A DNA stretch of 64,000 nt from a virus. The position numbers were made by a program, and so were the translations under genes. The stretch lies in IMG/VR virus record IMGVR_UViG_3300027733_002357. One strand, 5' to 3'. Under the pieces are notes generated by a model. That model was given only the letters and a program-made list of their open reading frames with translations, was not told the origin of the DNA and ran no database searches. Positions 17,939-52,439 of this stretch are shown here, in pieces (position 1 is the stretch's first letter; every line of letters starts with the position of its first letter).

Positions 17939-18483
17939 TGGAAAATATACATTTATGGCATGCTGATAGAGGAACTTATTTTGACAGAAATGCAAATATA
18001 ATTTCTTGGAGTGATGAATATAAGATTGTTCTTGGTAAATATAATTCTGTGGGTAGAGATTGTAATTTTTTTCTGCACGCAAACCACAGACCAGATTGGG
18101 TAACCACTAGCTCTCAGCTTTTAGGTCCAGTCAATCAGGAAATAGCAGAAATGCACATGAGTATGGGACATCCGTCGTGTAAGGGAGATATCATTATTGA
18201 AAATGATGTGTGGATCGGCGCTAAATCTACTATTATGTCAGGAGTAAGGATATGCAACGGGGCAGTTATTGGAGGAGGATCTGTTGTCACTAAGGATGTT
18301 CCACCTTATGCTATCGTTGCTGGTAATCCTGCTAAGGTTGTAAAAATGAGATTTAGCGAAATTCAGATAAAAGAACTACTTAACATTTCTTGGTGGAATT
18401 GGGAGGAGGATAAAATAAAAGAAAACGCTATGCTAATGTGGTGTGATAACATAGATGAATTTATTAATAAATTTAGAGTATAA
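17938..18483 (+). CDS. hexapeptide-repeat acetyltransferase (xenobiotic/Vat-like)
   Basis: Left-handed beta-helix repeats 'VWIGAKSTIMSGVRICNGAVIGGGSVV...AGNPAKVV'. Confidence 0.6.
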   Translation: MENIHLWHADRGTYFDRNANIISWSDEYKIVLGKYNSVGRDCNFFLHANHRPDWVTTSSQLLGPVNQEIAEMHMSMGHPSCKGDIIIENDVWIGAKSTIMSGVRICNGAVIGGGSVVTKDVPPYAIVAGNPAKVVKMRFSEIQIKELLNISWWNWEEDKIKENAMLMWCDNIDEFINKFRV

Positions 18484-18488
18484 TTTAC

Positions 18489-19145
18489 ATGGAGCATTTA
18501 AATACTTTAGTAATACTTGGATCATATTCTTTAGCAAGAGAATTCTATTTTCATACAATAGAATCTACATCACAATACCAAGATTTTATATTTGTTAATG
18601 ATCTAGATGATGGTCAATTTGAAGTGTTTTTAAACAATAAAAATTATAATGTTGTAAAGGATTGGAAATTTGATGAATCTTATCCATTTATAGTTGCAAT
18701 AGGAAATCCTCAGATAAAAATGAGGATGGTAGAAATGGCATTAGAATCTGGTCTTTATCCAGCTGAAACGGTAATACATCCAACAGCGAGAGTACAAGAT
18801 AAAGAAACATGTAAAATCGGGAAAGGTGGATTAATATCCCCAAACTGTATATTAACAACTAATATCTCCGTTGGTGATTACGTAACACTGAATCTTGCCA
18901 CGACTGTTGGACATGATACAAAGATAGGTAATTTTTCAACAACTAATCCAGGAGTCCATATATCTGGATTTGTTAATATAGGAGAAAGAGTAGAAATAGG
19001 TACAGGAGCATGTATAAAAAATAACACTAATATCGCATCTGATAATATGATAGGAGCTCAATGTGTTGTAGTTAAACATATAGAGGATAGTGATGGTGTT
19101 TATATTGGGGTTCCTTCTAAAAAATTAAGATCATTAAAAAAATGA
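18489..19145 (+). CDS. PglD/NeuD-like sugar N-acetyltransferase (hexapeptide)
   Basis: N-terminal Rossmann-like segment plus C-terminal hexapeptide repeats (IGNFSTTNPGVHISGFVNIGERVEIGTGACI). Confidence 0.5.
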   Translation: MEHLNTLVILGSYSLAREFYFHTIESTSQYQDFIFVNDLDDGQFEVFLNNKNYNVVKDWKFDESYPFIVAIGNPQIKMRMVEMALESGLYPAETVIHPTARVQDKETCKIGKGGLISPNCILTTNISVGDYVTLNLATTVGHDTKIGNFSTTNPGVHISGFVNIGERVEIGTGACIKNNTNIASDNMIGAQCVVVKHIEDSDGVYIGVPSKKLRSLKK

Positions 19146-20065
19146 ATAAATCTGTAGCTTTATTCAGTACTTTTTGTAACAGTGAGGAAAAAGTAAATGT
19201 CCTCGTCGAAAATATAAAAAAAGTTAAAGAATTAGGATTAGATGCTATAGTTATAACTCCATTCTTGTTGGATAGAAAAATTTACGATCTTTCTGATACT
19301 GTAATAACAACCAAAGAAAATCCATTAGATCTACACGATAAATCAATTGTAATTTGGAAGAAAGGATTTACTAAAGATTATAAAAATCTTTCAGGCGAGA
19401 TTTTCAATATTGTGTTACCTGATTACGGGTATGCTAGTGGGGTTCAGATGAAAAGATTAATAGATTATTCTCTTTCTTTTAATTATGAAAATTATCATAT
19501 AATTATATATGACCTATTAATTGATGGGGAGGTAGAAAAAATATTAACAGAGGGAAGAGAATGTTCTTTTTTCAGAAATGATAGAATAGTAGAGAATCCA
19601 GTCGGGGGAACTTTTATATCACTTAATAAAGAGAATGCAAAAATATATTCTTCGCTGATAAGACAACAGTCCTATTATTATGATATGGAAGACACTGGTG
19701 AAAAATGGCTAGGGAAAATACAATTAGCGATGGGAGGAAAAATAGAAGATCTTGTTGTAAGTGACACCATAAAAAATGGAGATGATGAAGCATTTTCTAT
19801 TGATCACACTCCGGATTTTAGTTTTAGTACATTTATAGTTAAGGACAAATTATTAGAATTATATTTCTATAATGTCAAGGTGGATACTAAGATTGAAATA
19901 GAGATTAATGGCGATATTATGATTAAAAATATTAGAGATAAAGAATCAATTAGAATTCTTGACGATATAAAAGATTGCAGGAGCTGCTCAATTTCATTCA
20001 ACGAATCAAAAGAGGATCTAACAGGTAAGATTATCAGATTATTTAAAACAGAAATAGAAAAATAG
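19142..20065 (+). CDS. hypothetical protein, paralog of 22327..23244
   Basis: Shares ALFSTFC..EEK, LPDYGY, KRLIDYS, LTEGRECSFF blocks with the paralog. Confidence 0.5.
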   Translation: MNKSVALFSTFCNSEEKVNVLVENIKKVKELGLDAIVITPFLLDRKIYDLSDTVITTKENPLDLHDKSIVIWKKGFTKDYKNLSGEIFNIVLPDYGYASGVQMKRLIDYSLSFNYENYHIIIYDLLIDGEVEKILTEGRECSFFRNDRIVENPVGGTFISLNKENAKIYSSLIRQQSYYYDMEDTGEKWLGKIQLAMGGKIEDLVVSDTIKNGDDEAFSIDHTPDFSFSTFIVKDKLLELYFYNVKVDTKIEIEINGDIMIKNIRDKESIRILDDIKDCRSCSISFNESKEDLTGKIIRLFKTEIEK

Positions 20066-20068
20066 AAT

Positions 20069-21223
20069 ATGAGAAATATCAATTTATTTGTTCCAACTTT
20101 CAGAAACGAAGAAATAATGGAACACATCACCGAATGCTTAGATAAGGGATGGACAGGCCTTGGGTTTAAAACCCAAGAAATGGAAGATGCATGGAAGAAG
20201 TATACTGGATTGCCTAATGCACATTTTATTAATTCTAATACATCGGGACTGCATTTGGCAGTGAAGATATTAAAAGATGCAAATAAATGGAAAGAAGGCG
20301 ATGAAATTATAACCACTCCTTTAACATTCGTATCAACCAATCATGCTATAGTTTACGAGAAAATGAAACCAGTATTTGCTGATGTTGACGAATCACTTTG
20401 TTTGGATCCAGAATCAGTTGAGAGCAGAATAACAAAGAAAACTAGAGCAGTTATATTTGTTGGCATCGGAGGTAATTCTGGAAAAATCGGTGAGATTATA
20501 AAAATTTGCAAAAAACATAAGCTTAAATTGATTCTGGATGCTGCACATATGGCAGGTACATTCATTGACTTAGACGGAAAGATTAAACATGCAGGAAACG
20601 AATCTGATGTTTCTATATTTAGTTTTCAGGCTGTTAAAAACCTTCCGACAGCAGATTCTGGAATGATATGTTTTAAGAATGATGACTATGATTCATTAGC
20701 AAGAAAGCTATCTTGGTTAGGAATTGATAAAGACACATATCAAAGAACAAATGATAAGGGAAGTTATAAATGGGAATATGATGTCGTAGATGCTGGATAC
20801 AAATACCACGGTAATTCGATAATGGCTTCAATGGGATTGGTAGGGTTAAAATACCTGGAGGAAGATAATTCTTATAGAAGAAAAATTTCAGAAATGTATG
20901 AATCAGCATTTTCTTCTGCTGGCATAAAAAGTATAAAGACTTCTAAATCTACATCAGTATCATCAAGACATCTTTATCAGATAAGGGTTAAAAACAGAAA
21001 TAAGATAATGGAGTATTTAAACTCCCAAGGAATATATCCTGGAGTTCATTATAGAGATAATACAAATTACACAATCTATAGCGAGCAGAAAGGAAATTGT
21101 CCTATGTCTTATAAGTTATCAGAAGAGATTATGTCACTTCCTTTACATATGCGATTAACAATTGATGATGTTGAATATGTAATAGAAAAAGTAATACAAG
21201 CAAATATTGAAATTAATGGATAA
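20069..21223 (+). CDS. DegT/DnrJ/EryC1-type PLP-dependent sugar aminotransferase
   Basis: 'TTPLTFVSTNHAI', 'FSFQAVKNL' (PLP-lysine), C-terminal HY..N motifs. Confidence 0.65.
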   Translation: MRNINLFVPTFRNEEIMEHITECLDKGWTGLGFKTQEMEDAWKKYTGLPNAHFINSNTSGLHLAVKILKDANKWKEGDEIITTPLTFVSTNHAIVYEKMKPVFADVDESLCLDPESVESRITKKTRAVIFVGIGGNSGKIGEIIKICKKHKLKLILDAAHMAGTFIDLDGKIKHAGNESDVSIFSFQAVKNLPTADSGMICFKNDDYDSLARKLSWLGIDKDTYQRTNDKGSYKWEYDVVDAGYKYHGNSIMASMGLVGLKYLEEDNSYRRKISEMYESAFSSAGIKSIKTSKSTSVSSRHLYQIRVKNRNKIMEYLNSQGIYPGVHYRDNTNYTIYSEQKGNCPMSYKLSEEIMSLPLHMRLTIDDVEYVIEKVIQANIEING

Positions 21224-21929
21224 CTACAACGATATACTAAATAAGTATTCATCTGACAAAGGCACCAGCCCTAATGAGCAGGAGAATCTAGCCAATGGAT
21301 ATGGAGATTTATACGAGAGATATTTTAGAGATTATAGGGAGAGCGCTGTAAATATCTGTGATATAGGAATAGACCAGGGAAGATCTCTTTTAGCTAACCA
21401 AGAGTATTTTACTAATGCTACAATCCATGGCGTTGATATAAGCGATAAATCTATTTATAGGACGGAAAGAATTAGAACCTATATGGTAGATCAAGGTAAC
21501 GTAAAACAGCTTGGAGATTTCTTTAGCGAGATGAGATTTAAAGGTATCGATTTTGATATAATAATTGATGATGGATCACATGATGTTGCTCATCAACAAA
21601 TGACATTTGGTAAATTATTCGATCTACTTAAGCCTGGTGGAATTTATATCATAGAGGATATGTGTACTAGTTTTTTTAAGGAGGGTGTAAATCTGTACGG
21701 ATACACACAAACTAGAGAAAAAATGGATAACAATACGGTTAATTTTTTAACTAATAGACCTTTAAGAAGCCCTTGGATAGATTCTGAAAAATTAGACAGG
21801 ATGGATTTTGAAATAGATTATGCAATAGTTTTCGATAAGCTTAATAGGAATATCCCATATTTAGATGTTTTCCCATGTATTAATGATTATCCACCAAGAT
21901 CTATAACATCGATAATTAAAAAGAAATGA
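21207..21929 (+). CDS. class I SAM-dependent methyltransferase
   Basis: 'ICDIGIDQGRS' motif I, 'IIIDDGSHD', 'LKPGGIYIIED'. Confidence 0.5.
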   Translation: MKLMDNYNDILNKYSSDKGTSPNEQENLANGYGDLYERYFRDYRESAVNICDIGIDQGRSLLANQEYFTNATIHGVDISDKSIYRTERIRTYMVDQGNVKQLGDFFSEMRFKGIDFDIIIDDGSHDVAHQQMTFGKLFDLLKPGGIYIIEDMCTSFFKEGVNLYGYTQTREKMDNNTVNFLTNRPLRSPWIDSEKLDRMDFEIDYAIVFDKLNRNIPYLDVFPCINDYPPRSITSIIKKK

Positions 21930-22330
21930 TCAGAGAATTTCGCAGTGATGATAAGGATGGAGTTTTAGGATGCTTAAAAGAAGTTTGGAGCATCACATCA
22001 ATAGATGATGACGTACTCGACAACTATCTTAGAAATAGCAATCTCCTTTATGTTATAGATATCGATGGTGAAATTGCTGGATGCGCCACTTTACATTTAC
22101 AAAAAAAGCTAATAAGAAATGGATCTACTGCAGGATTCATAGAGGATGTTGTTGTAAAAGGAAAGTACAGAAATAATAAATTAGGAGAATCCCTAATTGG
22201 TCATTTAGTAGATAAAGCAAAAGAAAAAGAATGCTATAAAGTTATTCTTTCGTGCTATCCTGAAAGAATTGCTTTTTATGAAAGATGCGGATTTTTCCAA
22301 GAAACAATAACAATGAGAAAACACCTATGA
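21926..22330 (+). CDS. GNAT family N-acetyltransferase
   Basis: GNAT motif A region 'VVVKGKYRNNKLGESLIGHL' and typical length. Confidence 0.55.
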   Translation: MIREFRSDDKDGVLGCLKEVWSITSIDDDVLDNYLRNSNLLYVIDIDGEIAGCATLHLQKKLIRNGSTAGFIEDVVVKGKYRNNKLGESLIGHLVDKAKEKECYKVILSCYPERIAFYERCGFFQETITMRKHL

Positions 22331-23244
22331 GAAGAGTAGCTTTATTTAGCACGTATTGTGATACCGAGGAAAAAGAAAAAGCTTTACTGGATAACTTAAC
22401 TAAAGTTAAGAGCCTAGGATTGGATTCATTTGTTTTGACTATACTTCCATTGTCTAAAAAAATACACGATGCTGCAGACTATGTGATTTATTCTAAAGAA
22501 AATCCAATACCTGACATTAATACTAAGTCTATTGTATCTTGGAGAATATGCGAGAATAACGTGAAGCTTATATCATTTCTCCCAGATTATGGATATCCAA
22601 GTTTGCTACAGTTAAAAAGATTAATAGATTTCTCTTCCACTTTGGATTATGATTACTATTTTACAATGATCTATGATATCATAATTACTCCGGAGATAGA
22701 GAAAGTTCTTACAGAGGGAAGAGAATGTAGCTTTTTTAAAAATAGTAAAGTTGATGAAGTTTTAGGAGGGATATTAACTGCATTCAACGGGGAGAATGCT
22801 AAAAAATTCTCATCTTTATTAACTGAAAAATCTTATTATAAGGATTCACATATAGCGGAGGCTTGGATGGCAAAAGTTAACGATTTAATAGGTGGTACAA
22901 TCGAAGACATATATGCTTCAGATTCTATTAATTTAAACGAGGCACTTCTATCGACAAACCATTCGCCTTTTCCAGATTTTCATTTGTTTATAGTGAAGCA
23001 TAAAAGCCTAAAGCTGTTTTTCTATTCTATTCCCTTCGAAATAAATTTAACTATTAAAACAAATCTTTTCGAGAAAGATATCATGATAGACAAACAGACT
23101 CTAGTTCATCTTCACGATAACGAAAAAGAGATAGAGTACATTAAAATAGTATATAAGAAAGCAGAAATAGATCTTGGATATTATTTTAATATATTAAAGA
23201 AAAGTGAAATAGAAAATTGCTCTGACCACATAGCTTTAACATGA
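22327..23244 (+). CDS. hypothetical protein, paralog of 19142..20065
   Basis: ATGA overlap with the GNAT gene; ~40% identity blocks with the paralog. Confidence 0.5.
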   Translation: MRRVALFSTYCDTEEKEKALLDNLTKVKSLGLDSFVLTILPLSKKIHDAADYVIYSKENPIPDINTKSIVSWRICENNVKLISFLPDYGYPSLLQLKRLIDFSSTLDYDYYFTMIYDIIITPEIEKVLTEGRECSFFKNSKVDEVLGGILTAFNGENAKKFSSLLTEKSYYKDSHIAEAWMAKVNDLIGGTIEDIYASDSINLNEALLSTNHSPFPDFHLFIVKHKSLKLFFYSIPFEINLTIKTNLFEKDIMIDKQTLVHLHDNEKEIEYIKIVYKKAEIDLGYYFNILKKSEIENCSDHIALT

Positions 23245-41798: not shown

Positions 41799-42118
41799 TA
41801 AAAAAATTTAGATTTAATAAAGAGGAAAATAATAGATGGTTTGTAGATCTTCCTGAATGGGAGGGAGAAAAAGACGATCTTGAAATGGTTCTAGGAGCGG
41901 ATTTACTTTTGGATATCTTATCCGGAAATTCCGATTATTGTTACGTTACATTGGGTGATGAACCATTTGAAGGATGTAACACATTAACTTATGATCATAA
42001 TGAATTTACCACGGGATATTATAACAATGATGCATGGCACGGGCCTTCTACTATTTGGCTTTGTTATGTTACTGAATTTGTCTTTGGAAGATATCCAGAG
42101 AAGATTTATTTCTCGTAG
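41795..42118 (+). CDS. hypothetical protein
   Basis: 107-aa ORF. Confidence 0.35.
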   Translation: MIKKFRFNKEENNRWFVDLPEWEGEKDDLEMVLGADLLLDILSGNSDYCYVTLGDEPFEGCNTLTYDHNEFTTGYYNNDAWHGPSTIWLCYVTEFVFGRYPEKIYFS

Positions 42119-42558
42119 TATTCTATCATCTTCACAGCATTTGATACTAGCCAAGGATCTACTCCAGGTATTTTCATTAGAAAATTAAGCTCGTATTTGT
42201 AGCAAAGAGCCTCTTCCTTATTGGGATCTAGTTTAGCATAAAGCTGCTTGATATAAAGGTGCATTGATTCATGCACCAGAATAGCTGCAATGTTGTAGAT
42301 GTTAGGATTCTTTATATCATTAACTGCTATGGTTATCATCGAATCACCTTCAGTTGTGGAAAATCCCCCGTTCCAATATCCTACGTTCTGACAAGTTTCT
42401 AATAGAACATCATATTTTTCCGGATCATATTTTTGAATGATTGATATTGCGCTATCTACTTTATTCTTCCACCCGTCACCAACATCTGCTATTTTAATCT
42501 GGCCAAATGAATAGGTTAATGAGAAATAGAATAATAGTGATAGCCCTATATTTTTCAT
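42106..42558 (-). CDS. secreted HExxH (zinc-metallopeptidase-like) protein
   Basis: Signal peptide; 'ILVHESMHLY' HExxH motif. Confidence 0.4.
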   Translation of the reverse strand: MKNIGLSLLFYFSLTYSFGQIKIADVGDGWKNKVDSAISIIQKYDPEKYDVLLETCQNVGYWNGGFSTTEGDSMITIAVNDIKNPNIYNIAAILVHESMHLYIKQLYAKLDPNKEEALCYKYELNFLMKIPGVDPWLVSNAVKMIEYYEK

Positions 42559-43007
42559 AGTTTTATTGCTGCTTCGTGAATTGCTTTTTTAAGAGCTGAA
42601 GATACAGTCATTTTTTCGAAAGGAATTGATCCTTCCTGGACCTCGATCATAATAGCTCTTATTTCAGTATCTGATTCACCTATTCCTTCGTACTTATTAC
42701 CTTTATAGTGCAACCTAACACCTACTTGGGTTATAGTGTTAGTCTTTTCTATACCAACAACTCTTATAGTTGTTTTAGGTAATCCGAAGTAATAAATCTC
42801 AACACCGACAGGAGATCCGTCATTGGAGAGACAGAATTTTTGTGATAGCTCCTCTTCTACTATTTGTTTTATACCGAATCTTATATCTCTAGATCCTAAT
42901 TCTCTAAGTTTTGCTGTAACGTAAACAGTGTCTACTTTTACACAATCCTGTGCTTGTGCTGTTATACCAAATAGTATAAGTCCAAAAAATATGATAAATC
43001 TTTTCAT
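42555..43007 (-). CDS. secreted hypothetical protein (candidate nuclease inhibitor)
   Basis: Signal peptide (..ITAQAQD); sits directly downstream of the secreted nuclease with an ATGA-type overlap. Confidence 0.35.
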   Translation of the reverse strand: MKRFIIFFGLILFGITAQAQDCVKVDTVYVTAKLRELGSRDIRFGIKQIVEEELSQKFCLSNDGSPVGVEIYYFGLPKTTIRVVGIEKTNTITQVGVRLHYKGNKYEGIGESDTEIRAIMIEVQEGSIPFEKMTVSSALKKAIHEAAIKL

Positions 43008-43597
43008 TATTTAATAATATATTTAGTGTAGTCAGTCGATGCTGGTTTTTCGTTTTTGAAATAATATTTTTCAACCTTATTTCCGTATTTTATAGTTTTA
43101 ATATATCCATCCGGTATAGTTGCACCTGTTGGTAATACCACAGATTTACCTGAGAAAATACATCTAATTTCAACAGTAACAACTTTATTTATTGATGCTA
43201 ATTCTCTTTCTCTAACCTCAAGTAATCTCCAAGTTGTTCTATTTAGATTTTCTTGTTGTAACGAACAGTTCAAATATGTGAATGTCTTATATAAAGATTC
43301 TTTAGTGCAATTAAAGTCTGCTGCTGGAGCTAAATGTCCTTTATCGTAAGGGTTATTTTCATAATCTTTATTGTCTGAAGTTAATATCGAATCACAAACA
43401 TAAAAATCCATTCCAGTCCTTGGAACAGTTCCATTTGGGCATTGTACCGTGTATCTAATAAATTTAGGCTGTTGTAATTTTTCAGAGTATACGATTTCAA
43501 ACATATTAGTTTTAACGTAGATTGAATCCCTTAGATTTTTTTGTGATAAACTAAGTAATGGTAGTGTTATTAATAGGGATAGTAATATATTTTTCAT
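43007..43597 (-). CDS. secreted DNA/RNA non-specific endonuclease (NucA/Serratia nuclease family)
   Basis: Signal peptide; 'DKGHLAPAADF' aligns with the DRGH catalytic motif; the downstream 'ESLYKTFTYLNCSLQQENLNRTTWRLLEVRERELA' segment aligns with the Serratia nuclease metal-ligand region. Confidence 0.65.
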   Translation of the reverse strand: MKNILLSLLITLPLLSLSQKNLRDSIYVKTNMFEIVYSEKLQQPKFIRYTVQCPNGTVPRTGMDFYVCDSILTSDNKDYENNPYDKGHLAPAADFNCTKESLYKTFTYLNCSLQQENLNRTTWRLLEVRERELASINKVVTVEIRCIFSGKSVVLPTGATIPDGYIKTIKYGNKVEKYYFKNEKPASTDYTKYIIK

Positions 43598-45306
43598 TAG
43601 TCTGATTTTCCTGTTTTTATTATATAAAATACCGAAGACCCACCGGCTGTCGGATTAGTTAATGCTATACTTTGTGATCCTGGATATGTAGGTACTAGAT
43701 TAGCAACTGCTGAATTTATTAATGTCCATTCCTGCTGTGTCAGAATCCTATAGTTAGGTACTCCAGATGGCCAAGAATTACCATTGATTTTTTTGTATAT
43801 CAAGTATATATCTGAAATTGTCATTGCTGAATTGACGTTTGCATCCATTCTATAGTAATCAATCGGAACGAAATTCTTATTTAGAACCTTATTTGTAAAG
43901 AATGTTATATCTTGACTATTTGGTTGATTGATAGTTAAATTGTCGATAACAACCTGAAAATCATAAACTGCAATATCTAATGAGGTTGTGATAGAAAAAA
44001 CACCAGATGAGTTAGTTGTATAAGTTTGAAATAAAGTATACGATCCTGAAGCTTTTGGTTTATAGAGCAATTTAACTGATATGCCTTGAACAGCGACAGC
44101 TTTAGAGTTGTATATAGTTCCTGAATAAGTAAATGGAATAGGATAATTTACAGTGGCAACTACAGCAGTTCTACTAGAACTAACACACCCACTAGTTGTG
44201 TTTCTCGCTTGAGCATAATAGGTTGTTGCGCTTGAAATACTAGGTGTAGTATAAGTAGTAACGCCTAATCCTCCCGATAAAACATTTCCTCCTATAGAAT
44301 TAGCATACCAATCAACAGTAGATCCTGAGGGTGGTGTTGCGGATAAAGATACCGTTCCTGCTAGCATTCTGCTTCCATTAACTCCGGTAGGAGCAGCTGG
44401 TGCATTTGCAGCAGTACACGATATTTGGTGTGTAACAAATCCTGTAAAGAAATCTGTAAAAGTTTGATTTGCAGGATCGGTCCATGTACCGTACTCGATA
44501 ACATAAGCGCAATTGTAATTGTTTGGTAAATCGTTCCATTGGGATCCGTTCCACTTTGTAACAGCATAATGTTCACCTCCAGAATTATTAGGTTCCCCAG
44601 CTGCCCAGTTATTATATTGCCCTGCTATGTTACCTGCCGTTTGACCGTTTGCAGTTTTAATTAATGTTCCGTTTTCCGGACCAGCGTCTATTCTCCAATA
44701 ACCTTCTTGAGCAACATCCGAGAGTGCAAACCATATGTTTGTTTGAGGTACGTTATTGTATATAAACAAATCCTCGTCCGAAGATGTTATAGTAACTAAG
44801 TAACCTGCTTGTCCTTTAAATGCTGTAGCTGCAGCGGCTGTTTTAGCAGCATTATAAAAAGCAGTAGTTGCTATTGGCCTATAAAAATGCCCATTTGACG
44901 GAAGATAAAAGTATCCAACAGGATTCTCTGTAGCAGTTACTGCAATATAGACATTACCTGGGGCTGATCCTGTATTTAATCTTAGCGAACCCAACACTGT
45001 ATTAACATTAGCTAATGTTCCTGTAAAACTTATTCTTGTAAAGTTTGATGCAAGTGCGTATCCCGTGCTAGCAGTTACCCCTGTAGTTGTATTTAGCCTT
45101 AATGTTGTTCCTGATGGGGGATTAACCAATCCTATTGTGATTAGTAGAGTTGAAGAGGTATTAAATCCAGTTACCGAGAATCCACTTACAATTTGGTTAG
45201 ATGTATTTTGCGGGTATGATGATGCACTTGGTGCCACAACACTCTGTGCACTTAAAGAAGTCCAGGTGAATAATATTATTGCCCAATTACAAATCTTGTA
45301 CCACAT
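43597..45306 (-). CDS. secreted C-type lectin domain protein (EPN/WND motifs) with beta-sandwich flanks
   Basis: Signal peptide after an internal Met; CTLD signature 'WFALSDVAQEGYWRIDAG...NNWAAGEPNNSGGEHYAVTKWNGSQWNDLPNNYNCAYVIEY'. Confidence 0.6.
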   Translation of the reverse strand: MWYKICNWAIILFTWTSLSAQSVVAPSASSYPQNTSNQIVSGFSVTGFNTSSTLLITIGLVNPPSGTTLRLNTTTGVTASTGYALASNFTRISFTGTLANVNTVLGSLRLNTGSAPGNVYIAVTATENPVGYFYLPSNGHFYRPIATTAFYNAAKTAAAATAFKGQAGYLVTITSSDEDLFIYNNVPQTNIWFALSDVAQEGYWRIDAGPENGTLIKTANGQTAGNIAGQYNNWAAGEPNNSGGEHYAVTKWNGSQWNDLPNNYNCAYVIEYGTWTDPANQTFTDFFTGFVTHQISCTAANAPAAPTGVNGSRMLAGTVSLSATPPSGSTVDWYANSIGGNVLSGGLGVTTYTTPSISSATTYYAQARNTTSGCVSSSRTAVVATVNYPIPFTYSGTIYNSKAVAVQGISVKLLYKPKASGSYTLFQTYTTNSSGVFSITTSLDIAVYDFQVVIDNLTINQPNSQDITFFTNKVLNKNFVPIDYYRMDANVNSAMTISDIYLIYKKINGNSWPSGVPNYRILTQQEWTLINSAVANLVPTYPGSQSIALTNPTAGGSSVFYIIKTGKSD

Positions 45307-47090
45307 GTTATAGTATAATTTAAAGCACTTGTTTTCAAATCCCAAGCTCCTCCGCCATTTATGTTAAATTTAAATTTCTTTGATATTTTAATATTTGTAC
45401 CTATGCTAGGAAGCATCACGTATGGTGATTTCAAAACAACATCATTATAATAACTCACATAAGGAGCATAAACAAATAGGTTCATTAATTTTATATCAAA
45501 TCTTTTACCAACTCTAAAATCGTACATAGCTCCTACAATTAATGCAGTACCTAAAAATGATTCTCTATATACGCTTCCGTAAGAAACAGTACCCATGTAT
45601 AACAATTTAAGATTTTTAGGCTTTTTTAAATTAAACATCTGCCCAGCTGCAAATGTTCCGTATAGAGATTTATTACCTTCAAAACCTATTGTTAAAGTAC
45701 CTGAGGCCAATATTATAGATTTAGGTCTAATCCAAGCATAAAATGCTGTTATGTTAGGTCCTTTTAATGCTGATGTGTAATCTACAAGAGCACCATAGCT
45801 TCTTTTTCCGTCCCATCTCATTGATGTATATCCTCCTGTTGCTTTAGCACCAGTTCTAACCTCGGAGTTCTTAAAATTAAATCCTATAAAATCAGCACTT
45901 CCAACAACAGTTGGTTTTCCACCTTCCTTGCTAGTTGGGGTTGATTTAATTGTAGTAGAAGCACCTCCTGTTATATTTGTTTTGCCTTGTCCTTGTTCAG
46001 ATTGCGTGTTTGTCTGTCCTTGTTCTGTTTGCCCGTTAGAATTATTATTCCCTGAACCATTCCCACTATTCCCAGTGTTACCATTATTCCCATTGGAACC
46101 ATTATTACCAGATTCTCCATTTCCTGTTGATTGATTATTTGTTTGTTCACCTGTCCCTTGACTTCCAGGCTGCGTACTTGATTGACCGTTAGATTGTGAT
46201 CCCTGTTGTGTAGTACTATTTCCTGTGGTTTGTGCTGTTCCGGAGGTACCCCCACCGTTAGTATTTCCTGTACCGTTTTGCGTATTATTTCCTGACGCTG
46301 TTCCGGTAGTTCCGTTGGATGATTCATTAGATGTTCCAGTAGTTCCCGTGGATGCTCCAGTAGTTCCTGCAGATGATCCATTAGATGTCACAGTAGTTCC
46401 ATTGGTTGTTCCAGTAGCTCCAGTGGATGCTCCAGTATTATTGTTTACCGGCGTGACCACCTGTGTATTTCCGTTCGTATTTGATACGCTAGGAGATGAA
46501 CTTTCTCCACCCCCTTGTGTAGATCCACCTGCATTTCCTTGATTAGACCCCGAGTTTTCTTGTCCCTGCGAGCTATTCTGATTTGATCCAGAATTGGTTG
46601 AATTTCCTTGGCTATTGTTATTAGATCCTTCCCCGTTGTTTTGACTGTTACCTTTATTCTTCTTAGATCCCTCACTGTTTCCCGAATTAGATACAGAGCT
46701 TACTGCTCCCCCTAATATATTTGTAGATCCTGCAATATCTGATATTGTCGATAATGAATTTAATATTCCTATTACATTTAATGCAGTACTTTGTGTTATG
46801 TTTACTGCTGTTCCTAATCCTACAATCTCTGAACATGGACTATTCGTACCATATTGCGAAAATATGTTACTTGCCCAAGACTCAAATACGCCATTATTAA
46901 AATCGTTATAGCTAAATGACCCAATTTCCCCATAATATCCCACAGTGACGTTTCCGTTGATTGGAACTATAATTGTTTTATCATTACCTGTACATGGATC
47001 TGTATAGGTATAGTTGTAAGTCTGAGCGCTTATTTTATAAGAACCAAACAGACAAACAAATAGGAGTAATATAATAGCATCAAGTCTCAA
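45276..47090 (-). CDS. secreted Q/N/G/S/T-rich protein with C-terminal predicted beta-barrel domain
   Basis: Signal peptide; ~300-aa low-complexity region (GNSQNNGEGSNNNSQGNSTNSGSNQNSSQG...); C-terminal ~200 aa with alternating hydrophobic pattern. Confidence 0.45.
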   Translation of the reverse strand: MRLDAIILLLFVCLFGSYKISAQTYNYTYTDPCTGNDKTIIVPINGNVTVGYYGEIGSFSYNDFNNGVFESWASNIFSQYGTNSPCSEIVGLGTAVNITQSTALNVIGILNSLSTISDIAGSTNILGGAVSSVSNSGNSEGSKKNKGNSQNNGEGSNNNSQGNSTNSGSNQNSSQGQENSGSNQGNAGGSTQGGGESSSPSVSNTNGNTQVVTPVNNNTGASTGATGTTNGTTVTSNGSSAGTTGASTGTTGTSNESSNGTTGTASGNNTQNGTGNTNGGGTSGTAQTTGNSTTQQGSQSNGQSSTQPGSQGTGEQTNNQSTGNGESGNNGSNGNNGNTGNSGNGSGNNNSNGQTEQGQTNTQSEQGQGKTNITGGASTTIKSTPTSKEGGKPTVVGSADFIGFNFKNSEVRTGAKATGGYTSMRWDGKRSYGALVDYTSALKGPNITAFYAWIRPKSIILASGTLTIGFEGNKSLYGTFAAGQMFNLKKPKNLKLLYMGTVSYGSVYRESFLGTALIVGAMYDFRVGKRFDIKLMNLFVYAPYVSYYNDVVLKSPYVMLPSIGTNIKISKKFKFNINGGGAWDLKTSALNYTITCGTRFVIGQ

Positions 47091-47833
47091 TTTTTAAATA
47101 CGCCTTTTGTAATTAGTCTGCTTACCACCCTTGACGATGCAGTTTCTAAAGCTTTTTTGGTAGATATACCAATAGTTGATTGGTTAAATTTGACATCATC
47201 TGAGATATCACCTAAAATATTTGATGTTTTTACTGTGCTTGCTTCCCCTAATCCAGATCCTACAATTACTTGACTTGTTTCAGCGTCTACAAATTTTATT
47301 TGTAATCCTAATCTTGTTGTTTGTGTGGTTGTTTGTTGCCCATTAATCTTAACAACCTCATCTTCAGAAACACTAAAGTCATATACTTCGATGTATACAA
47401 AATATTTGGCTAGTATTACATTCCCTTTAACGTCTATTTTATTAACTGATATACCTTTATCCGAAGCCTTATCCTGAGCAATCATTCTTTGTTTGATATC
47501 TTCTTTCTCCTCTGTAAATATGAATCTACCAGTATACTCTAGATATTCTATAACTATATTTGTTACACCTAAACCTACTCTTTTGTCTTTAAGCTCCGGA
47601 TATAATTCATATAATTCTTCATTTATACCGATTTTTAAAAGCTGTATAGGAACTTGTATTGTATCTGTATAATCAGCAACATCATTGATAGATTGTTTTT
47701 TCTCAAACTCCGCTTGATATTGTTCGGTTTTTACAGAGCCAATGCCCCCGCCATTATTCTGAGGGGGCTGGGCCTGTAAAGTTTTACAACCGAATAAGCT
47801 TAATATAGATATTATGATTATTAGATTTTTCAT
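47087..47833 (-). CDS. CsgG-like outer-membrane lipoprotein
   Basis: Lipobox 'SLFGC' after an internal Met; 'LGLQIKFVDAETSQVIVGSGLGEAS' resembles the CsgG 'LRVVNVSTGEILSS' region; length ~250 aa. Confidence 0.4.
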   Translation of the reverse strand: MKNLIIIISILSLFGCKTLQAQPPQNNGGGIGSVKTEQYQAEFEKKQSINDVADYTDTIQVPIQLLKIGINEELYELYPELKDKRVGLGVTNIVIEYLEYTGRFIFTEEKEDIKQRMIAQDKASDKGISVNKIDVKGNVILAKYFVYIEVYDFSVSEDEVVKINGQQTTTQTTRLGLQIKFVDAETSQVIVGSGLGEASTVKTSNILGDISDDVKFNQSTIGISTKKALETASSRVVSRLITKGVFKN

Positions 47834-47835
47834 TT

Positions 47836-48495
47836 TTATTCTTCTATTTGGCTTCTTAGTAATCCGCATTCTTGGCATTCTTCGAAACCATCTCCATCTG
47901 AGTCTCCCCAAACGTGATCACAGTTTCTGTGTTCGAAATATTCATCGATGTCTCCATCTCCGTCAGTATCGTAACCATCGTTTACACCGTCGCCATCTTC
48001 ATCGACTTCAGCTTTTTCAAATTCTTCTACGATAGGTTCTTCTACTATAGATTCCTCTACGATATGTTCTTCTACTATAGGTTCTTCTACTATAGGCTCC
48101 TCTTTGTAAACTTCGTCTACGACACTAGTTTTTTTTTCGGCGGAATAAGATTCATCAGCTACATTGGAAAGTGTTACACCATCTTCCTCGTCAACTTTTT
48201 GAATTAACATTTTATCTCTATCTTCTGAGTTGAACCAGTAATCTACAACTTTATTTAAGTTACCTACGAATGCTCCTAATAAGATTAATAGCATTTCTTT
48301 CCAATCTTCTCCGATTGTTTTACCTAAGAATACACCAGCATTAATACCTAAGATGATAAGTGTAAATAATCCTAATACAATTGCTGTGATTCTCCATCTA
48401 TTTGCTTGCATTTGCTGAAGCATATAGTAGAATCTATTTTTATCTTCTACTTTCACGTAATCTGTTTTACTGCTAAAGAATTTTTTCATTGACAT
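47836..48495 (-). CDS. membrane protein with acidic (EEPIV)n repeats and DxDxDG calcium-binding-like motifs
   Basis: Two TM helices; 'EEPIVEEPIVEEHIVEESIVEEPIVEE'; 'DEDGDGVNDGYDTDGDGDIDE...DSDGDG'. Confidence 0.5.
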   Translation of the reverse strand: MSMKKFFSSKTDYVKVEDKNRFYYMLQQMQANRWRITAIVLGLFTLIILGINAGVFLGKTIGEDWKEMLLILLGAFVGNLNKVVDYWFNSEDRDKMLIQKVDEEDGVTLSNVADESYSAEKKTSVVDEVYKEEPIVEEPIVEEHIVEESIVEEPIVEEFEKAEVDEDGDGVNDGYDTDGDGDIDEYFEHRNCDHVWGDSDGDGFEECQECGLLRSQIEE

Positions 48496-48518
48496 TTTTA
48501 TATCTTATTTTATTTTTT

Positions 48519-48857
48519 TTACCAAGATTCCTCTTCCTCTTTTTTAGGTTTAACAGGCTCTTGTGTTGCTGCAGGTTTTTCAATAACTCTTTCGTGTATA
48601 ATTGTATTACCTCCGCCATTTTCAGTCTTTTGTTTATTTTCCTGATTCTGCTCAACGTTAATTGTAATAGGTGCTTGTCCTCCAGTTTGTTCGGTTTTAG
48701 TCTCCTCTGAAGGTTCTTCACTACCACCACCAAACATAGTAGTACTTAACCATACTCCTCCCCCTGCAATTACTGTAGTTAGTGTTCCTATGATTGTCTT
48801 TTTTAATCCTGACCAAGATCCCTCGTTGGCCTCCGGTGCATTTGTTTCTTCGCTCAT
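48519..48857 (-). CDS. small single-pass membrane protein
   Basis: One TM (IIGTLTTVIAGGGVWL), E/K-rich tail. Confidence 0.4.
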   Translation of the reverse strand: MSEETNAPEANEGSWSGLKKTIIGTLTTVIAGGGVWLSTTMFGGGSEEPSEETKTEQTGGQAPITINVEQNQENKQKTENGGGNTIIHERVIEKPAATQEPVKPKKEEEESW

Positions 48858-48866
48858 ATTTTTATC

Positions 48867-50798
48867 TTATTTTATTTTAGCTAACTTTTCCACTATGGTT
48901 TTTCCGCCCTCTGTAGATAGAGTTACGAAATATAATCCTGATTGTAATTTACCAAGATCAGTATAGTAAGAAAATTGTCCGTTTGGTACTTGACCGGTTA
49001 ATATTGTAGCTACCTTTCTTCCTTGTAAATCTGATACGTATAATGTAGCATTTGACGTTTCAGATAGACTGAATGTTATTGTAACATCTTTCTCAAATGG
49101 GTTGGGATAAACTATCATAGAATTTGCGTCTATTAATTCCCCATTACTTATTTTTAATACCTGAAGTATTCCATTTGTCGGAGTTAATGTTAAGTCTTTA
49201 GAATTTGCTGCATTTCCTGCAAATTTTCTAGTAGTGTATAAAGGACTCTCCTCCCATTGGTTTTGCGGTTGTAGTGCTACGAATTGTAATGTTACTACGT
49301 CGTCTCCATTTTTTAAAGTATTTTGACTGTTAGTAACATCATATCCCCCCCAATCTATTTCTCCGTCATTTGCGTTAATATAAGTTAACCATTTCATTGC
49401 GGCAGATGATGAATAAACCCCCTTGAATGAAAGTAAATCCTCGTTATATTTTAATCCAAATTGTAGTGAGTTTAGTTCGATACCGTTAGTTAATACTTTA
49501 ACCGGTATATTTACTAAGTTACCCTCTTGAACTGATAAGTGAGGAACGTTAACTTCTATTGAAGAAGTAGGAAAATCATATTCTACTTTAGTATCAATTA
49601 CATTGTAGATCTGGTTTTCTAATCCTGGTGCAGGTCCAACCAATACTTCGATTGGAGTTACACGAGCCATATGATAACCTGTACCGTTAGCATCTCCTGG
49701 TACAACCACGTAGTAAACAACTGAATCAGGTTGCCCTGGTAAGATATCAAATGTAAAGTTAGTTGCTCCAGTAATTGTTGAAGTGTAGTTAGTTGAAGAA
49801 GCGTTGATTGTGTTGTATTCTGATTGTGTAAAGAATTTAACGTCTTTAGTGTTATTAGGCCATGCTGCGAATCTTCCTGAGATTCTACCAAATACACCGT
49901 ATGCGTCAGTGATTGTTACGTTATCTGATTCGTTAACATCTGCTGTATAATAATCAAATCCTGACATTGTACCGTTGCCTAATACCCATTGGTTGATTAA
50001 TTGAGCATCTGCAGTTGAAATAACGTTACCTACTGCCATTGAATCACCCTGTATTGCTAATCTTACGTCCCAATAAGTAGTATCTAATGGAACAGATATA
50101 GCAAAGTCCCCGTTTATATCTGTAACGTATGTTGAATGCTGTGACCATGTGTTACCGCCAGCTGGTCTTGTTTGTAAAGCTAATGTTAAATTCTTAGCTC
50201 CTGATCCAGTTACGTTGGCAAATGTTCCATGATAATCAAAGTTTTGAAATACGAAGTTACCACCGTAATTATGTAAACCTAGAGTTGTATCTGCTCCTTC
50301 CTGGGTAGCTGCATATTGTTGGAAGGTATTAGCTGCTGGTACAACTGACCAAGCTAATGGCGTAATAGATGCTAAGTTGTTAAATACTGACGAAGCAGCG
50401 TGAGTAAAAGTAATCTGAAATCTCTCACCGTCAGGTAATGTATACGTGGAGCTTGATCCAGTATAAACTAAGGTCATAGTAATGTAACCGTTTGCAGGAT
50501 TGGTTATGTACTGGAAATCTAAGTTAGTAGGAGATCCTAGAAGAGATACTGTAGCATTGGTAAATGCTATTTTATCGTAGAATACTCTAAATTGAACACC
50601 CGTATACTTTGTAAGCGTAGTGTTTTTAGAAGTAATCTTTGCAGTGGTAATTCCCTGTGCAGTTGTACCGACTGTGTAGTTAGTGTCGATTATGGCCCAG
50701 ATACCCGGTGAAGGTGCTGGTGGTCCAGATTGTGAAAATAAGTCAAGAGTTAGCGTCATAAAAAACGCTAAAACACCTAACATTCTTAGTGTCCTCAT
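48867..50798 (-). CDS. secreted protein with T9SS type-A C-terminal sorting domain
   Basis: Signal peptide; C-terminal 'VYPNPFEKDVTITFSLSETSNATLYVSDLQGRKVATIL...SGLYFVTLSTEGGKTIVEKLAKIK' matches the Por-secretion CTD pattern. Confidence 0.65.
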   Translation of the reverse strand: MRTLRMLGVLAFFMTLTLDLFSQSGPPAPSPGIWAIIDTNYTVGTTAQGITTAKITSKNTTLTKYTGVQFRVFYDKIAFTNATVSLLGSPTNLDFQYITNPANGYITMTLVYTGSSSTYTLPDGERFQITFTHAASSVFNNLASITPLAWSVVPAANTFQQYAATQEGADTTLGLHNYGGNFVFQNFDYHGTFANVTGSGAKNLTLALQTRPAGGNTWSQHSTYVTDINGDFAISVPLDTTYWDVRLAIQGDSMAVGNVISTADAQLINQWVLGNGTMSGFDYYTADVNESDNVTITDAYGVFGRISGRFAAWPNNTKDVKFFTQSEYNTINASSTNYTSTITGATNFTFDILPGQPDSVVYYVVVPGDANGTGYHMARVTPIEVLVGPAPGLENQIYNVIDTKVEYDFPTSSIEVNVPHLSVQEGNLVNIPVKVLTNGIELNSLQFGLKYNEDLLSFKGVYSSSAAMKWLTYINANDGEIDWGGYDVTNSQNTLKNGDDVVTLQFVALQPQNQWEESPLYTTRKFAGNAANSKDLTLTPTNGILQVLKISNGELIDANSMIVYPNPFEKDVTITFSLSETSNATLYVSDLQGRKVATILTGQVPNGQFSYYTDLGKLQSGLYFVTLSTEGGKTIVEKLAKIK

Positions 50799-51299: not shown

Positions 51300-51554
51300 A
51301 TGAAAAAATCTTTCCTAATATTATCTTTGATTTCTCTATCATTCTTACAATCTTGTTTAGAAGTTAAGAAAAAGGAAGAAATCATAAAATGCGTAGTTAC
51401 CTCCTGTGAGGAGATTCACCCCATATCTGTACATGACGATATAAATCGTCCCCTTGGATATAGATTACAAACATCTTGTGGAAGATCCTTTAGAAGTAAG
51501 ATTAAATATGAAGTTGGTGACACTATAGGCGTTACTAGGATTAGCTATCGATAG
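51300..51554 (+). CDS. small outer-membrane lipoprotein (o-spanin-like)
   Basis: Signal peptide with 'FLQSC' lipobox; 84 aa; adjacent to the endolysin. Confidence 0.45.
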   Translation: MKKSFLILSLISLSFLQSCLEVKKKEEIIKCVVTSCEEIHPISVHDDINRPLGYRLQTSCGRSFRSKIKYEVGDTIGVTRISYR

Positions 51555-51596: not shown

Positions 51597-52439
51597 ATGT
51601 TACTTAAAAATGGATCTAAAGGAGAAGATGTAAAAAAACTCCAAGAAAAATTAGGACTGGCCGCAGATGGTTCTTTCGGTCCTGGTACAGAATCAAAAGT
51701 TAAAGAGTGGCAATCAGCTAACGGATTAACAGCAGATGGTATTGTTGGTGATGGTACTTGGTCTAAAATGTTCGCCTCAGCACCAGTTGCACCGACAGCA
51801 GCACCAGCCTCAGCAGCACCAGTTGCTATTCCTCCTTCTGCTTTCAAGTTGGAAAATTTAAAGGGGCATGTTCCTGATGCAGTTCTTGCACAGATTCCTG
51901 ATACAGCAGCTAAATTTAACATTACAAATACTTTAAGACTTGCTCACTTCTTAGCACAGTGTGGACACGAGTCTGGAGGTTTTAAAGCAGTTTCTGAAAA
52001 TCTTAACTACTCTGCTGACGGTCTTAAAAAGATCTTCCCTAAATATTTCCCAGGAAATCTTAACGAGTCTTATGCAAGACAACCAGAGAAAATTGCTTCT
52101 AGAGTTTATGGAAGTAGAATGGGTAACGGTGACGAAGCTTCTAAGGAAGGTTTCAAATTTAGAGGTAGAGGTTATATCCAATTAACTGGTAAATCTAACT
52201 ATGCTTCTTTTGATAAATTCGTAGATGATGATATTCTAGGAAATCCTGATTTAGTTGCTACTAAATACCCTTTAATGTCTGCAGCATTCTTCTTTAATAA
52301 CAATAGTCTTTGGTCTATTTGTGATAAAGGAGCAGATGATGCTACAGTTACAGCAGTAACAAAAAGAGTAAACGGTGGAACTATTGGATTGCCCGATAGA
52401 ATCAAGCACTTTAAGGAGTACTACAATTTGCTTAAGTAA
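51597..52439 (+). CDS. endolysin: PG_binding_1 domain plus GH19 (chitinase-like) catalytic domain
   Basis: N-terminal 'LAADGSFGPGTESKVKEWQSANGLTADGIVG'; catalytic 'LAHFLAQCGHESGGF' and 'FRGRGYIQLTGKSNY' GH19 motifs. Confidence 0.75.
   Translation: MLLKNGSKGEDVKKLQEKLGLAADGSFGPGTESKVKEWQSANGLTADGIVGDGTWSKMFASAPVAPTAAPASAAPVAIPPSAFKLENLKGHVPDAVLAQIPDTAAKFNITNTLRLAHFLAQCGHESGGFKAVSENLNYSADGLKKIFPKYFPGNLNESYARQPEKIASRVYGSRMGNGDEASKEGFKFRGRGYIQLTGKSNYASFDKFVDDDILGNPDLVATKYPLMSAAFFFNNNSLWSICDKGADDATVTAVTKRVNGGTIGLPDRIKHFKEYYNLLK

Follow-up and report, generated by a model that had tools for sequence, protein, structure and literature searches.

Why does a virus encode a C-type lectin that keeps the EPN and WND motifs of animal proteins, and where would its product act? 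The question is raised by a minus-strand gene in IMG/VR virus record IMGVR_UViG_3300027733_002357, analysed here as one stretch of 64,000 nucleotides (nt; hereafter the window). We show that this open reading frame (ORF) specifies a Sec-exported modular protein of a large uncultivated Bacteroidota phage, 569 amino acids (aa) long and referred to below as the lectin, in which a signal peptide is followed by a beta-sandwich, a long-form C-type lectin domain (CTLD), an Ig_7 domain, a transthyretin-like beta-sandwich and a divergent dockerin-like EF-hand module. The gene lies within a conserved block whose products are exported, one of them combining a cohesin domain with a sorting domain of the type IX secretion system (T9SS), and we give roughly even chances to the proposal that, on the surface of infected Bacteroidota cells, the product is a Ca2+-dependent lectin docked to this cohesin scaffold, which the phage itself encodes.

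Sequence comparison and structural modelling confirm that the lectin carries a canonical CTLD with a predicted calcium-type sugar site. Pfam Lectin_C (PF00059) matched aa 164–269 with 25.1 bits (gathering score 22.6, E = 3e-5), and variant lectins of related phages scored 28.9–29.9 bits against the same model. A phmmer search of the PDB sequences returned CD23, MBP, SP-D and DC-SIGN with E-values of 7.5e-5 to 1e-2, while the family profile from a diverse alignment (A2, which holds relatives of the lectin of Flavobacterium phage vB_FspM_immuto, hereafter immuto, together with bacterial PEP-CTERM lectins and a few added animal CTLDs) reached CD23 at 9e-38 and mincle and DC-SIGN at about 1e-35. 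When aa 128–290 were modelled with AlphaFold from the diverse alignment, the domain was predicted with a local confidence (pLDDT) of 88.5 and a global score (pTM) of 0.84. The top 50 Foldseek matches to this model were all CTLDs, with target-normalised template-modelling (TM) scores of 0.74–0.87 for single-domain entries; the best folds in the PDB (CD23, CEL-I, SRCL, mincle, MGL and ASGPR) gave TM scores of 0.75–0.87 with E about 1e-7, and a search of BFVD returned only CTLDs from eukaryotic viruses, with weaker scores. Structure prediction, which the sequence-only reading of this locus had put forward as the check on its assignment, thus returns a predicted CTLD rather than some other fold.

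The residues expected at the binding site point in the same direction. Translation of the exact coordinates places EPN at aa 238–240 and WND at aa 257–259, both intact as the sequence-only reading had claimed; EPN lines up with the EPN of CD209-like and perlucin-like CTLDs and WND with that of animal CTLDs. In this alignment the lectin stretch GEPNNSGG-EHY pairs with GEPNNAG(D/G)-EDC of shark and fish CD209-like proteins and of a perlucin-like protein, and WNDLPN with WND(x)(x)C. The set of Ca2+ site-2 ligands is complete (E238, N240, the bridging glutamate E245, N258 and D259), with E347, N349, E354, N365 and D366 as the counterparts in DC-SIGN. At site 1, for which D161, E165, D188 and D194 of MBP-A are the reference, three of the four ligands are kept (D197, E201 and N241). 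Across 58 homologues of 69–85% identity, E238, P239, N240, E245, W257, N258, D259, D197 and E201 are invariant, and the EPN...WND arrangement is retained in nearly all lectin variants of the 60 viral loci. The long-loop region contains, immediately ahead of the EPN loop, an insertion of 17 residues (at about aa 207–229) that can be seen in the A2 alignment and is strictly conserved in the family.

Several features nevertheless count against treating this domain as a textbook animal lectin. The full-length AlphaFold model, built from 58 close homologues, has a confident C-terminal half and a pLDDT below 50 at aa 173–260, and Foldseek with this model retrieved generic immunoglobulin (Ig) arrays only; the CTLD was modelled confidently in the domain-only run with the more diverse alignment. 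The fourth site-1 position is occupied by H246 in the subfamily of the lectin, where most relatives have Asp (NEDY). In addition, none of the four cysteines of the canonical disulfides (C1–C4 and C2–C3) is present, their places being taken by Ala, Y247, N262 and I270, and the sole cysteine of the domain, C266, lies off the canonical positions. Since the disulfides are missing and a histidine sits at site 1, the Ca2+ and sugar affinities of animal carbohydrate-recognition domains (CRDs) are not transferable to this protein. The 'full CTLD layout' of the sequence-only reading therefore stands for the fold, the EPN triplet, the bridging glutamate and WND, and falls for all four canonical cysteines.

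Where does such a domain come from? The beta-sandwich always precedes the CTLD in the lectin family, and the two are conserved together (62–66% identity) across variants whose C-terminal halves differ; we refer to this unit (aa 20–293) as the head. A search of 50%-identity cluster representatives with the head yields 129 relatives at E<=1e-30, a number that grows to 1,389 at E<=1e-10 and to 3,784 at E<=1e-3. An EPN...W[NSD]D motif occurs in 125 of the 150 best representatives, others having QPD, and motif matches among the relatives amount to 166 for EPN..WND and 20 for QPD..WND; most prokaryotic and phage units contain either no cysteine or two. Lectin_C occurs two to seven times in each of six large relatives, which also contain Por_Secre_tail, CHU_C with SprB repeats, bacterial TSP3 repeats or RTX repeats, and named relatives stem from metagenome-assembled genomes (MAGs) of Cyanobacteriota, Nanopelagicales, Nitrosopumilus and Phycisphaeraceae and from protists, a 'gliding motility-associated-like protein' being another. 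The statement that calcium-dependent domains of this kind are rare outside eukaryotes does not survive these counts, which include T9SS adhesins of Bacteroidota as well as bacterial RTX and PEP-CTERM surface proteins. The clade is large and annotated, yet mostly unstudied. Cultured phages with a domain of this clade, by contrast, are rare: among 50,697 GenBank phage records, relatives of the lectin were found only in three immuto isolates and a RefSeq copy.

Compared with animal CRDs (CD23, DC-SIGN/CD209, MBP, mincle, CEL-I and SRCL), the lectin has the same long-form fold and most of the site-1 ligands, and its WIGL-like motif, EPN, bridging glutamate and WND are in register with theirs, but it shares only 20–25% identity, lacks every canonical cysteine, has the site-1 histidine and the insertion, is encoded by a phage and is joined to bacterial-type modules. 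Prokaryotic surface proteins (T9SS adhesins, RTX proteins and small PEP-CTERM lectins) possess the same head at 31–51% identity and are the probable source of the phage domain. Unlike the lectin, they are cellular, are often 1,000–5,000 aa long with two to nine matched stretches, and rely for anchoring on T9SS, type I secretion or PEP-CTERM signals of their own instead of a dockerin-like module. The sharing of the head with gliding adhesins of the SprB/CHU_C type suggests, at the level of sequence, that it was captured from adhesins on the host surface. The usual C-type-lectin fold in phages is that of the variable, ligand-binding proteins of diversity-generating retroelements (DGRs), of the Mtd/TvpA type (PMC12636319, PMC9853417). 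These differ in being Ca2+-independent, in lacking EPN and WND, and in being hypervariable tail proteins encoded beside a reverse transcriptase and a template repeat. A DGR origin of the lectin was considered and rejected: the domain is conserved, the gene is not repeated, in whole or in part, anywhere else in the window, and no reverse transcriptase (RVT) was matched among the window ORFs scanned.

The gene itself is well delimited. The ORF begins with an ATG (MWYKICNW), runs for 569 codons and stops at 43597–43599; the JGI gene call on contigs 99–100% identical likewise gives 569 aa, and more than 2,900 homologues in a metagenome protein collection measure about 567–570 aa. An alternative TTG start at 45345, 39 nt upstream of the ATG, is used neither by the homologues nor by the JGI call, and the peptide quoted in the sequence-only reading is present in the translation. 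As read from the sequence, the N-terminus conforms to a Sec-type signal, with K4, the hydrophobic stretch AIILFTW and then the predicted cleavage site SLSA↓Q. Q21 is invariant in the 58 homologues, and the signal fits the Q-rule for Bacteroidetes substrates of signal peptidase I, according to which glutamine directly follows the cleavage site (PMC5837995) and which has been remarked before for proteins of P. gingivalis phages (PMC10367356). This predicted signal peptide bears out the earlier description of the protein as secreted.

That the surrounding DNA is a large uncultivated Bacteroidota phage and not a cell follows from its relatives and its gene content. Relatives of the lectin are encoded on 60 IMG/VR contigs of up to 274 kb, one of them 100% identical, and the neighbouring genes on the identical and related contigs include a PIF1/Dda-like helicase, a Clp protease, a metallophosphatase, a glycoside hydrolase family 19 (GH19) endolysin, thymidylate synthase and Thg1. 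The closest cultured relatives of a Gp23-like protein in the window are the capsid proteins of immuto and of the Tenacibaculum jumbo phage PTm1. There are no tRNA genes in the window, and typical cellular housekeeping genes are absent from the ORFs scanned. The host is assigned to Bacteroidota because of the T9SS tail of the neighbouring protein, the Q-rule and the host of immuto. The Gp23-like protein (289 aa, 57928–58797, plus an adjoining gene, 59278–61155, for a 625-aa SPFH/Band 7 membrane protein, both on the minus strand) covers only the middle of the T4 Gp23 model (58.9 bits) and shares 25% identity with the major capsid protein of immuto, so that a fragment or a paralogue of the vertex type may be at hand. 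A single match was found among species-representative genomes, on a 3.4-kb contig (L001, JBIPMA010000251.1) of a Schleiferiaceae MAG from Lake Mendota, where a gene ending in a cohesin is followed by a homologue of the lectin (64% identity), as in the phages. This contig probably represents a piece of phage DNA that was binned together with the host, and would then hint at the host family.

The C-terminal half of the lectin is modular as well. Behind the head, the full-length model resolves an Ig_7 domain and a small beta-sandwich (Table 1); a profile of the whole C-terminus (A3) matched only a transthyretin-like protein in the PDB, at 0.016, and CarboxypepD_reg is matched in 4 of 14 family members. 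The terminal module consists of a helix, a short helix, an EF-hand loop, a further helix and a small C-terminal sub-domain, the helices (464–476, 481–487 and 497–507) being modelled with a pLDDT of about 90. Its loop, D488-A-N-V-N-S-A-M-T-I-S-D499 (nt 43810–43845), follows the 1-3-5-12 pattern of Ca2+ loops; D499 is invariant, and N490 and N492 are nearly so. A profile of 15 segments from architectural variants, with the window lectin as its first row (A6), matched cellulosomal dockerins in the PDB at 5e-9 to 5e-4 (5e-9 for a double-dockerin serine protease, 1e-4 to 5e-4 for the dockerins of Xyn10B, ScaB and ScaH), and it is because A6 reaches these structures that we call the module a divergent dockerin, the support being that of the family and not of the single sequence. 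Variant lectins in related phages have textbook dockerin loops (e.g., GDINNDGKITIVDAYLLASRISG and ADVDGNGxFNExDTYKLLQxLTG), and such loops, for instance that of variant L014, align in register with the module of the window lectin. The module is also found in the 643-aa cohesin protein of the block (aa 187–371, E = 4e-15) and in gp13 and gp14 of immuto. By these comparisons the C-terminus of the lectin appears to be a divergent dockerin-like module. Variants of 760–886 aa additionally carry an LCCL domain (Pfam 43–52 bits; aa 392–448 in L018 and aa 405–464 in L056, from IMG/VR contigs 3300043775_002158 and 3300043446_003193), as well as a dockerin loop of textbook type, and end in a cohesin-like domain. 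LCCL domains are known mainly from animal extracellular proteins.

A candidate partner for this module is the product of the first gene of the block, a 643-aa exported protein composed of an N-terminal domain, the dockerin-like module, a cohesin and a type A T9SS sorting domain. The sorting domain scores 46.1 bits with Por_Secre_tail and 43.8 bits with TIGR04183. The cohesin is borderline in Pfam (PF00963, 24.0 bits against a gathering score of 24.1), and that of immuto gp15, which also has Por_Secre_tail, reaches 36.6 bits. Pfam Cohesin was matched in 11 of 14 related regions, a locally iterated hidden Markov model found cohesin-like domains in 58 of 66 sources, and a profile of the domain (A5) matched nothing but cellulosomal cohesins in the PDB, at 2e-7 to 5e-6. 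In the variants of 760–886 aa, the lectin protein itself ends in a cohesin-like domain; BLASTP of this C-terminal domain from the 862-aa variants against cohesin proteins gave weak matches, with E about 0.001–0.003. Two separate proteins of immuto, gp14 and gp15, are fused as the 643-aa protein in the window, and this fusion may be read, from sequence, as a Rosetta-stone style link between the dockerin-like and cohesin modules.

The two genes stand in a compact and conserved setting. The lectin gene is the sixth of nine in a run on the minus strand (42106–50798), in which the overlaps between neighbouring genes measure 1–4 nt, or 31 nt where the lectin begins, an operon-like packing; all of the products have a hydrophobic leader followed by glutamine or a lipobox cysteine. 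By BLASTP, eight of the nine match immuto gp12–gp19 with 24–70% identity (Table 1). In the related loci that were fetched, which were compared with 10-kb flanks, the lectin gene almost always adjoins homologues of the 112-, 219-, 274- and 604-aa proteins. The best conserved member, well above its neighbours and present in nearly all related loci, is the lipoprotein, which had no match in Pfam, NCBIfam, the PDB (with a 14-sequence profile), PHROGs or PADLOC; the idea that it is CsgG-like was dropped, as nothing of the kind came from Pfam, NCBIfam or the 14-sequence profile against the PDB. The 604-aa protein has a cysteine-containing N-domain, about 250 aa of low complexity rich in G, S, T, N and Q, and a beta-rich C-terminal domain, both ends being conserved in immuto gp18; one guess is that it serves as an outer-membrane anchor with a long disordered stalk. 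The endonuclease has a signal peptide, LSLS↓Q, and its start shares 1 nt with the lectin stop codon. The last protein (42106–42558, 150 aa) has an HExxH motif, LVHESMHLY, and a weak match to mod_HExxH, a peptide-modifying family (E = 0.0043), which makes it a possible exported metalloenzyme of small size. Immediately ahead of the block, on the plus strand, lies a PG_binding_1 plus GH19 endolysin (51597–52439), preceded by an 84-aa lipoprotein (51300–51554, plus strand) that could be a spanin component; in the relative L004, the endolysin is on the strand of the block, immediately before the cohesin gene. PHROGs and PADLOC contain no family for the lectin or for most of the block. The sequence-only reading had recognized the exported CTLD and had missed the phage genome and this conserved block with its cohesin, T9SS and dockerin-like parts.

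Table 1. Coordinates of the lectin gene, its domains and the other members of the block, with the identity of the products to immuto proteins
Feature	Position (nt)	Strand	Basis	Immuto counterpart (identity)
643-aa exported protein, first block gene	48867–50798	-	ORF, Pfam, NCBIfam, profile A5	N-terminal 370 aa, gp14 (33%); C-terminal 220 aa, gp15 'cohesin domain-containing protein' (28%)
Cohesin domain of 643-aa protein, aa ~407–550	49149–49580	-	Pfam, profile A5	
T9SS type A sorting domain of 643-aa protein, aa 563–641	48876–49112	-	Por_Secre_tail, TIGR04183	
112-aa small membrane protein	48519–48857	-	ORF; immuto gp16 homologue	gp16 (47%)
219-aa membrane protein, acidic repeat region	47836–48495	-	ORF	
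Lipoprotein, about 249 aa, lipobox LFG↓C	47087–47836	-	immuto gp17 homologue	gp17 (70%)
604-aa exported protein	45276–47090	-	ORF; 3' end overlaps lectin start by 31 nt	gp18 (24–37%)
569-aa exported C-type lectin protein gene	43597–45306	-	ORF list, JGI gene call	gp13 (35–40%)
Signal peptide, aa 1–20, predicted cleavage SLSA↓Q	45247–45306	-	read from sequence	
N-terminal beta-sandwich, aa 21–135	44902–45246	-	strands of full-length model, pLDDT about 80	
CTLD, long form, aa 136–274	44485–44901	-	Pfam Lectin_C, model, Foldseek, profile	
EPN triplet (E238, P239, N240), Ca2+ site 2, determinant of mannose/N-acetylglucosamine-type specificity	44587–44595	-	translation, alignment	
WND motif (W257, N258, D259), Ca2+ site 2	44530–44538	-	translation, alignment	
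Ig_7 (CHU_C-associated Ig-like) domain, aa 303–387	44146–44400	-	PF19081, 58.7 bits, E = 7e-16; pLDDT 85–90	
Transthyretin/CarboxypepD_reg-like beta-sandwich, aa 388–455	43942–44145	-	model strands, pLDDT >90	
Divergent dockerin-like module, aa 456–569	43600–43941	-	model, family profile A6	
196-aa exported non-specific DNA/RNA endonuclease	43007–43597	-	Endonuclease_NS, 64.1 bits; PHROG nuclease	gp12 'endonuclease G' (56%)
Two 150-aa exported proteins, block end	42106–43007	-	ORFs with signal peptides	first protein, gp19 (33%)

The only relative of the lectin in a cultured phage is immuto gp13, a 'lectin C-type domain-containing protein' (QQO91931.1, MW353176). Like the lectin, it has a signal peptide, an EPN/WND CTLD without disulfides and a transthyretin-like plus dockerin-like C-terminus, and it is encoded in a block that resembles the one in the window in having an endonuclease, a cohesin with a T9SS tail, a small membrane protein, a lipoprotein and a low-complexity beta-rich protein. 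It differs in being 332 aa long and in lacking the N-terminal beta-sandwich, the 17-residue insertion and Ig_7; the order of the genes also differs between the two phages. The immuto proteins are annotated automatically only, and the cohesin and lectin content of the block appears in its GenBank record at the level of domains. We found no functional study of the proteins of the immuto block in the literature, and no paper on a phage cohesin/dockerin/lectin module or on gp13.

Taken together, these elements are compatible with a small scaffold built by the phage. The lectin would be exported during infection and would bind, in a Ca2+-dependent manner, glycans with equatorial 3- and 4-hydroxyls (of the mannose, N-acetylglucosamine, glucose or fucose type), while its dockerin-like module would dock onto the cohesin of the 643-aa protein. 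Because the latter has a type A sorting domain, the type IX system of the host should place it on the cell surface or release it from there, and the lectin would then act as the carbohydrate-binding module of a phage-encoded, cellulosome-like scaffold. The block does recall cellulosomes (the Clostridium thermocellum Xyn10B dockerin and CipA cohesin, or Acetivibrio cellulolyticus ScaB) in placing a cohesin beside a surface-anchoring signal and in pairing EF-hand partners of dockerin type with a carbohydrate-binding domain. It departs from them in being encoded by a phage with a Gram-negative host and in using a T9SS tail in place of SLH domains or sortase; its cargo is a lectin (with LCCL in relatives) instead of glycoside hydrolases, and the dockerin of the window has one good and one degenerate Ca2+ loop, unlike those of cellulosomes. 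What the complex would do for the phage is a matter of speculation: it might mask the polysaccharide or receptor of the host against superinfection or wasteful adsorption to debris, or it might hold the infected cell on polysaccharide particles. The secreted nuclease encoded in the block may act alongside the lectin. We extend the idea more tentatively, at somewhat less than even chances, to a general statement that widespread large Bacteroidota phages of fresh water (and, for immuto, the brackish Baltic Sea) encode their own cohesin–dockerin scaffold, exported through Sec and T9SS, which displays a lectin, includes the LCCL-domain variants of relatives, has a secreted nuclease alongside and changes the sticking of, or adsorption to, infected cells. 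We found no description, in the literature searched, of such a virus-built, cellulosome-like surface complex for phages.

A number of observations speak against docking and surface display. The main gap is that passage through the outer membrane is left unexplained by a Sec signal alone, no T9SS sorting domain having been recognised on the lectin with Pfam or NCBIfam (Por_Secre_tail/TIGR04183 and CHU_C/TIGR04131 included); piggy-back export of a periplasmic complex, release at lysis or the uncharacterised proteins of the block might provide a route. The first Ca2+ loop of the module is degenerate, only D455 and D466 being kept before helix 464–476, and Pfam Dockerin_1 (PF00404) found no match in the window lectin alone; scores of 15.1 bits for the module of the 643-aa cohesin protein and of 16.6 for a variant lectin likewise fall short of the gathering score of 22.9. 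A comparison of the single lectin sequence with the CelS dockerin by hhalign gave E = 0.14, and the A6 profile is driven by variants whose loops are better than those of the window lectin. Many related phages, moreover, encode cohesin-bearing proteins with no detectable T9SS tail. Sugar binding and docking are predictions from sequence and model, and the role is speculative.

These weaknesses lend some weight to another picture, which we hold to be unlikely but worth keeping in view, in which the lectin works alone in the periplasm or after lysis, its dockerin-like end is no more than a structural Ca2+ EF-hand, and it neighbours a cohesin by chance, both being encoded in one block for exported proteins. 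The ligand would then be peptidoglycan N-acetylglucosamine, precursors of capsule or lipopolysaccharide, or lysis debris. A Sec signal with no T9SS sorting domain and a dockerin-like loop below the Pfam threshold fit such a protein, as does the established acceptance of N-acetylglucosamine by EPN-type CTLDs, and in L004 the endolysin gene comes immediately before the block, on its strand. Coincidence, however, sits badly with a dockerin-like module and a cohesin that accompany the lectin in almost every related locus and across four lectin architectures, with the duplication of the module in the cohesin protein and with the fusion of gp14 and gp15 in the window. A different doubt concerns the ligand, which might be a protein, a mineral or another surface, with EPN and WND holding a structural Ca2+ only. 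We think this improbable: many CTLDs are known to bind no sugars (Zelensky & Gready 2005), and the conserved 17-residue insertion beside the site and the missing disulfides could be taken in its favour, but the five site-2 ligands, which in MBP and DC-SIGN jointly hold the Ca2+ and the sugar, are all invariant, and prokaryotic units switch between EPN and QPD, as expected under selection for sugar specificity.

Could the protein instead belong to the virion, as the tip of a tail fibre or as a capsid decoration resembling Hoc or BAM, or as a counterpart of DGR tail proteins, and fasten the phage to glycans of the host or the environment? C-type-lectin folds of phages usually occur in tail proteins (PMC12636319, PMC9853417), and the lectin contains Ig-like domains; yet it has a cleavable signal peptide whereas the virions of tailed phages assemble in the cytoplasm, its gene lies among those for exported proteins, a secreted nuclease and T9SS cargo and not among structural genes, it matched no PHROG structural family, and fibre-like genes are found elsewhere, at 6.5–12.6 kb. 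A virion role is on these grounds even less probable than a ligand other than sugar. Least credible of all, to the point of being nearly negligible, is that the gene encodes a surface protein of the bacterium and that the window is cellular DNA or a misassembly. The head unit is indeed common in bacterial adhesins, and one relative is on the 3.4-kb contig of the Schleiferiaceae MAG, but an IMG/VR contig 100% identical and 59 other viral contigs carry the lectin or relatives of it, the synteny extends to the cultured phage immuto, and genes for phage replication, lysis and capsid-like proteins are spread across the window, which has no tRNA genes.

Other parts of the window contain features that bear on phage surfaces and sugars. 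Three paralogous fibre-like proteins (6523–8097, plus strand; 8885–11572 and 11584–12636, minus strand) have a common N-terminus, MA(T/S)xRPFAYNP...GGLxWW; ConA-like (Laminin_G_3) domains are present in two of the three, and for one there is a match to a PHROG virion structural protein. It is probably these proteins that actually serve the phage in receptor binding. A sugar-modification cluster at 16279–23244 (plus strand), whose glycans the sequence-only reading had proposed as possible ligands of the lectin, encodes two methyltransferases, a DegT/EryC1 aminotransferase (266 bits) and two hexapeptide acetyltransferases, of which one has a PglD N-domain, along with three unannotated ORFs of ~310–330 aa; glycosyltransferases of families GT2 and GT17 lie outside it, at 5077–5796 (plus) and 57136–57927 (minus). 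The cluster may act on the virion, on DNA or on the host envelope. At least 10 ORFs that look otherwise unrelated share the N-terminal motif MK(H/N)(I/L)K(L/S)F(E/D)(Q/N)F (e.g., MNHIKLFEQFKQ, MVKHLKLFENFDN and MKHIKSIEQFKAINEQLF); a loose regular expression found 9 among 82 ORFs, the remainder being recognised by eye. They are located at 1477–2055, 3292–4047, 4089–4769, 13810–14409, 28924–29541, 29933–30364, 33431–34171 and 34178–34951 on the plus strand and at 2317–2796 and 31818–33032 on the minus strand, and the motif could mark paralogous modules or be a targeting or packaging signal.

By itself, the lectin domain adds little: it is one more disulfide-poor CTLD of prokaryotes and phages that keeps the animal-type EPN/WND site, with thousands of homologues in metagenome and assembly collections, the closest of those examined being on JGI metagenome contigs. 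Biochemistry of the clade would show whether the classical C-type mechanism works without a disulfide core and outside animals. Any real novelty lies in the block, still a hypothesis as a complex, in which a cohesin with a T9SS tail, dockerin-like modules, a lectin, a nuclease and a lipoprotein are conserved between a cultured Flavobacterium phage and dozens of contigs from uncultivated phages, and the pair of immuto and Flavobacterium sp. LMO8 makes the idea of a surface complex directly testable. Should the complex indeed form on infected cells, it would mean that phages exploit the type IX secretion of their hosts to remodel the cell surface, with a bearing on superinfection exclusion, on the attachment of infected lake cells to particles and on the use of cohesin–dockerin pairs beyond cellulose.

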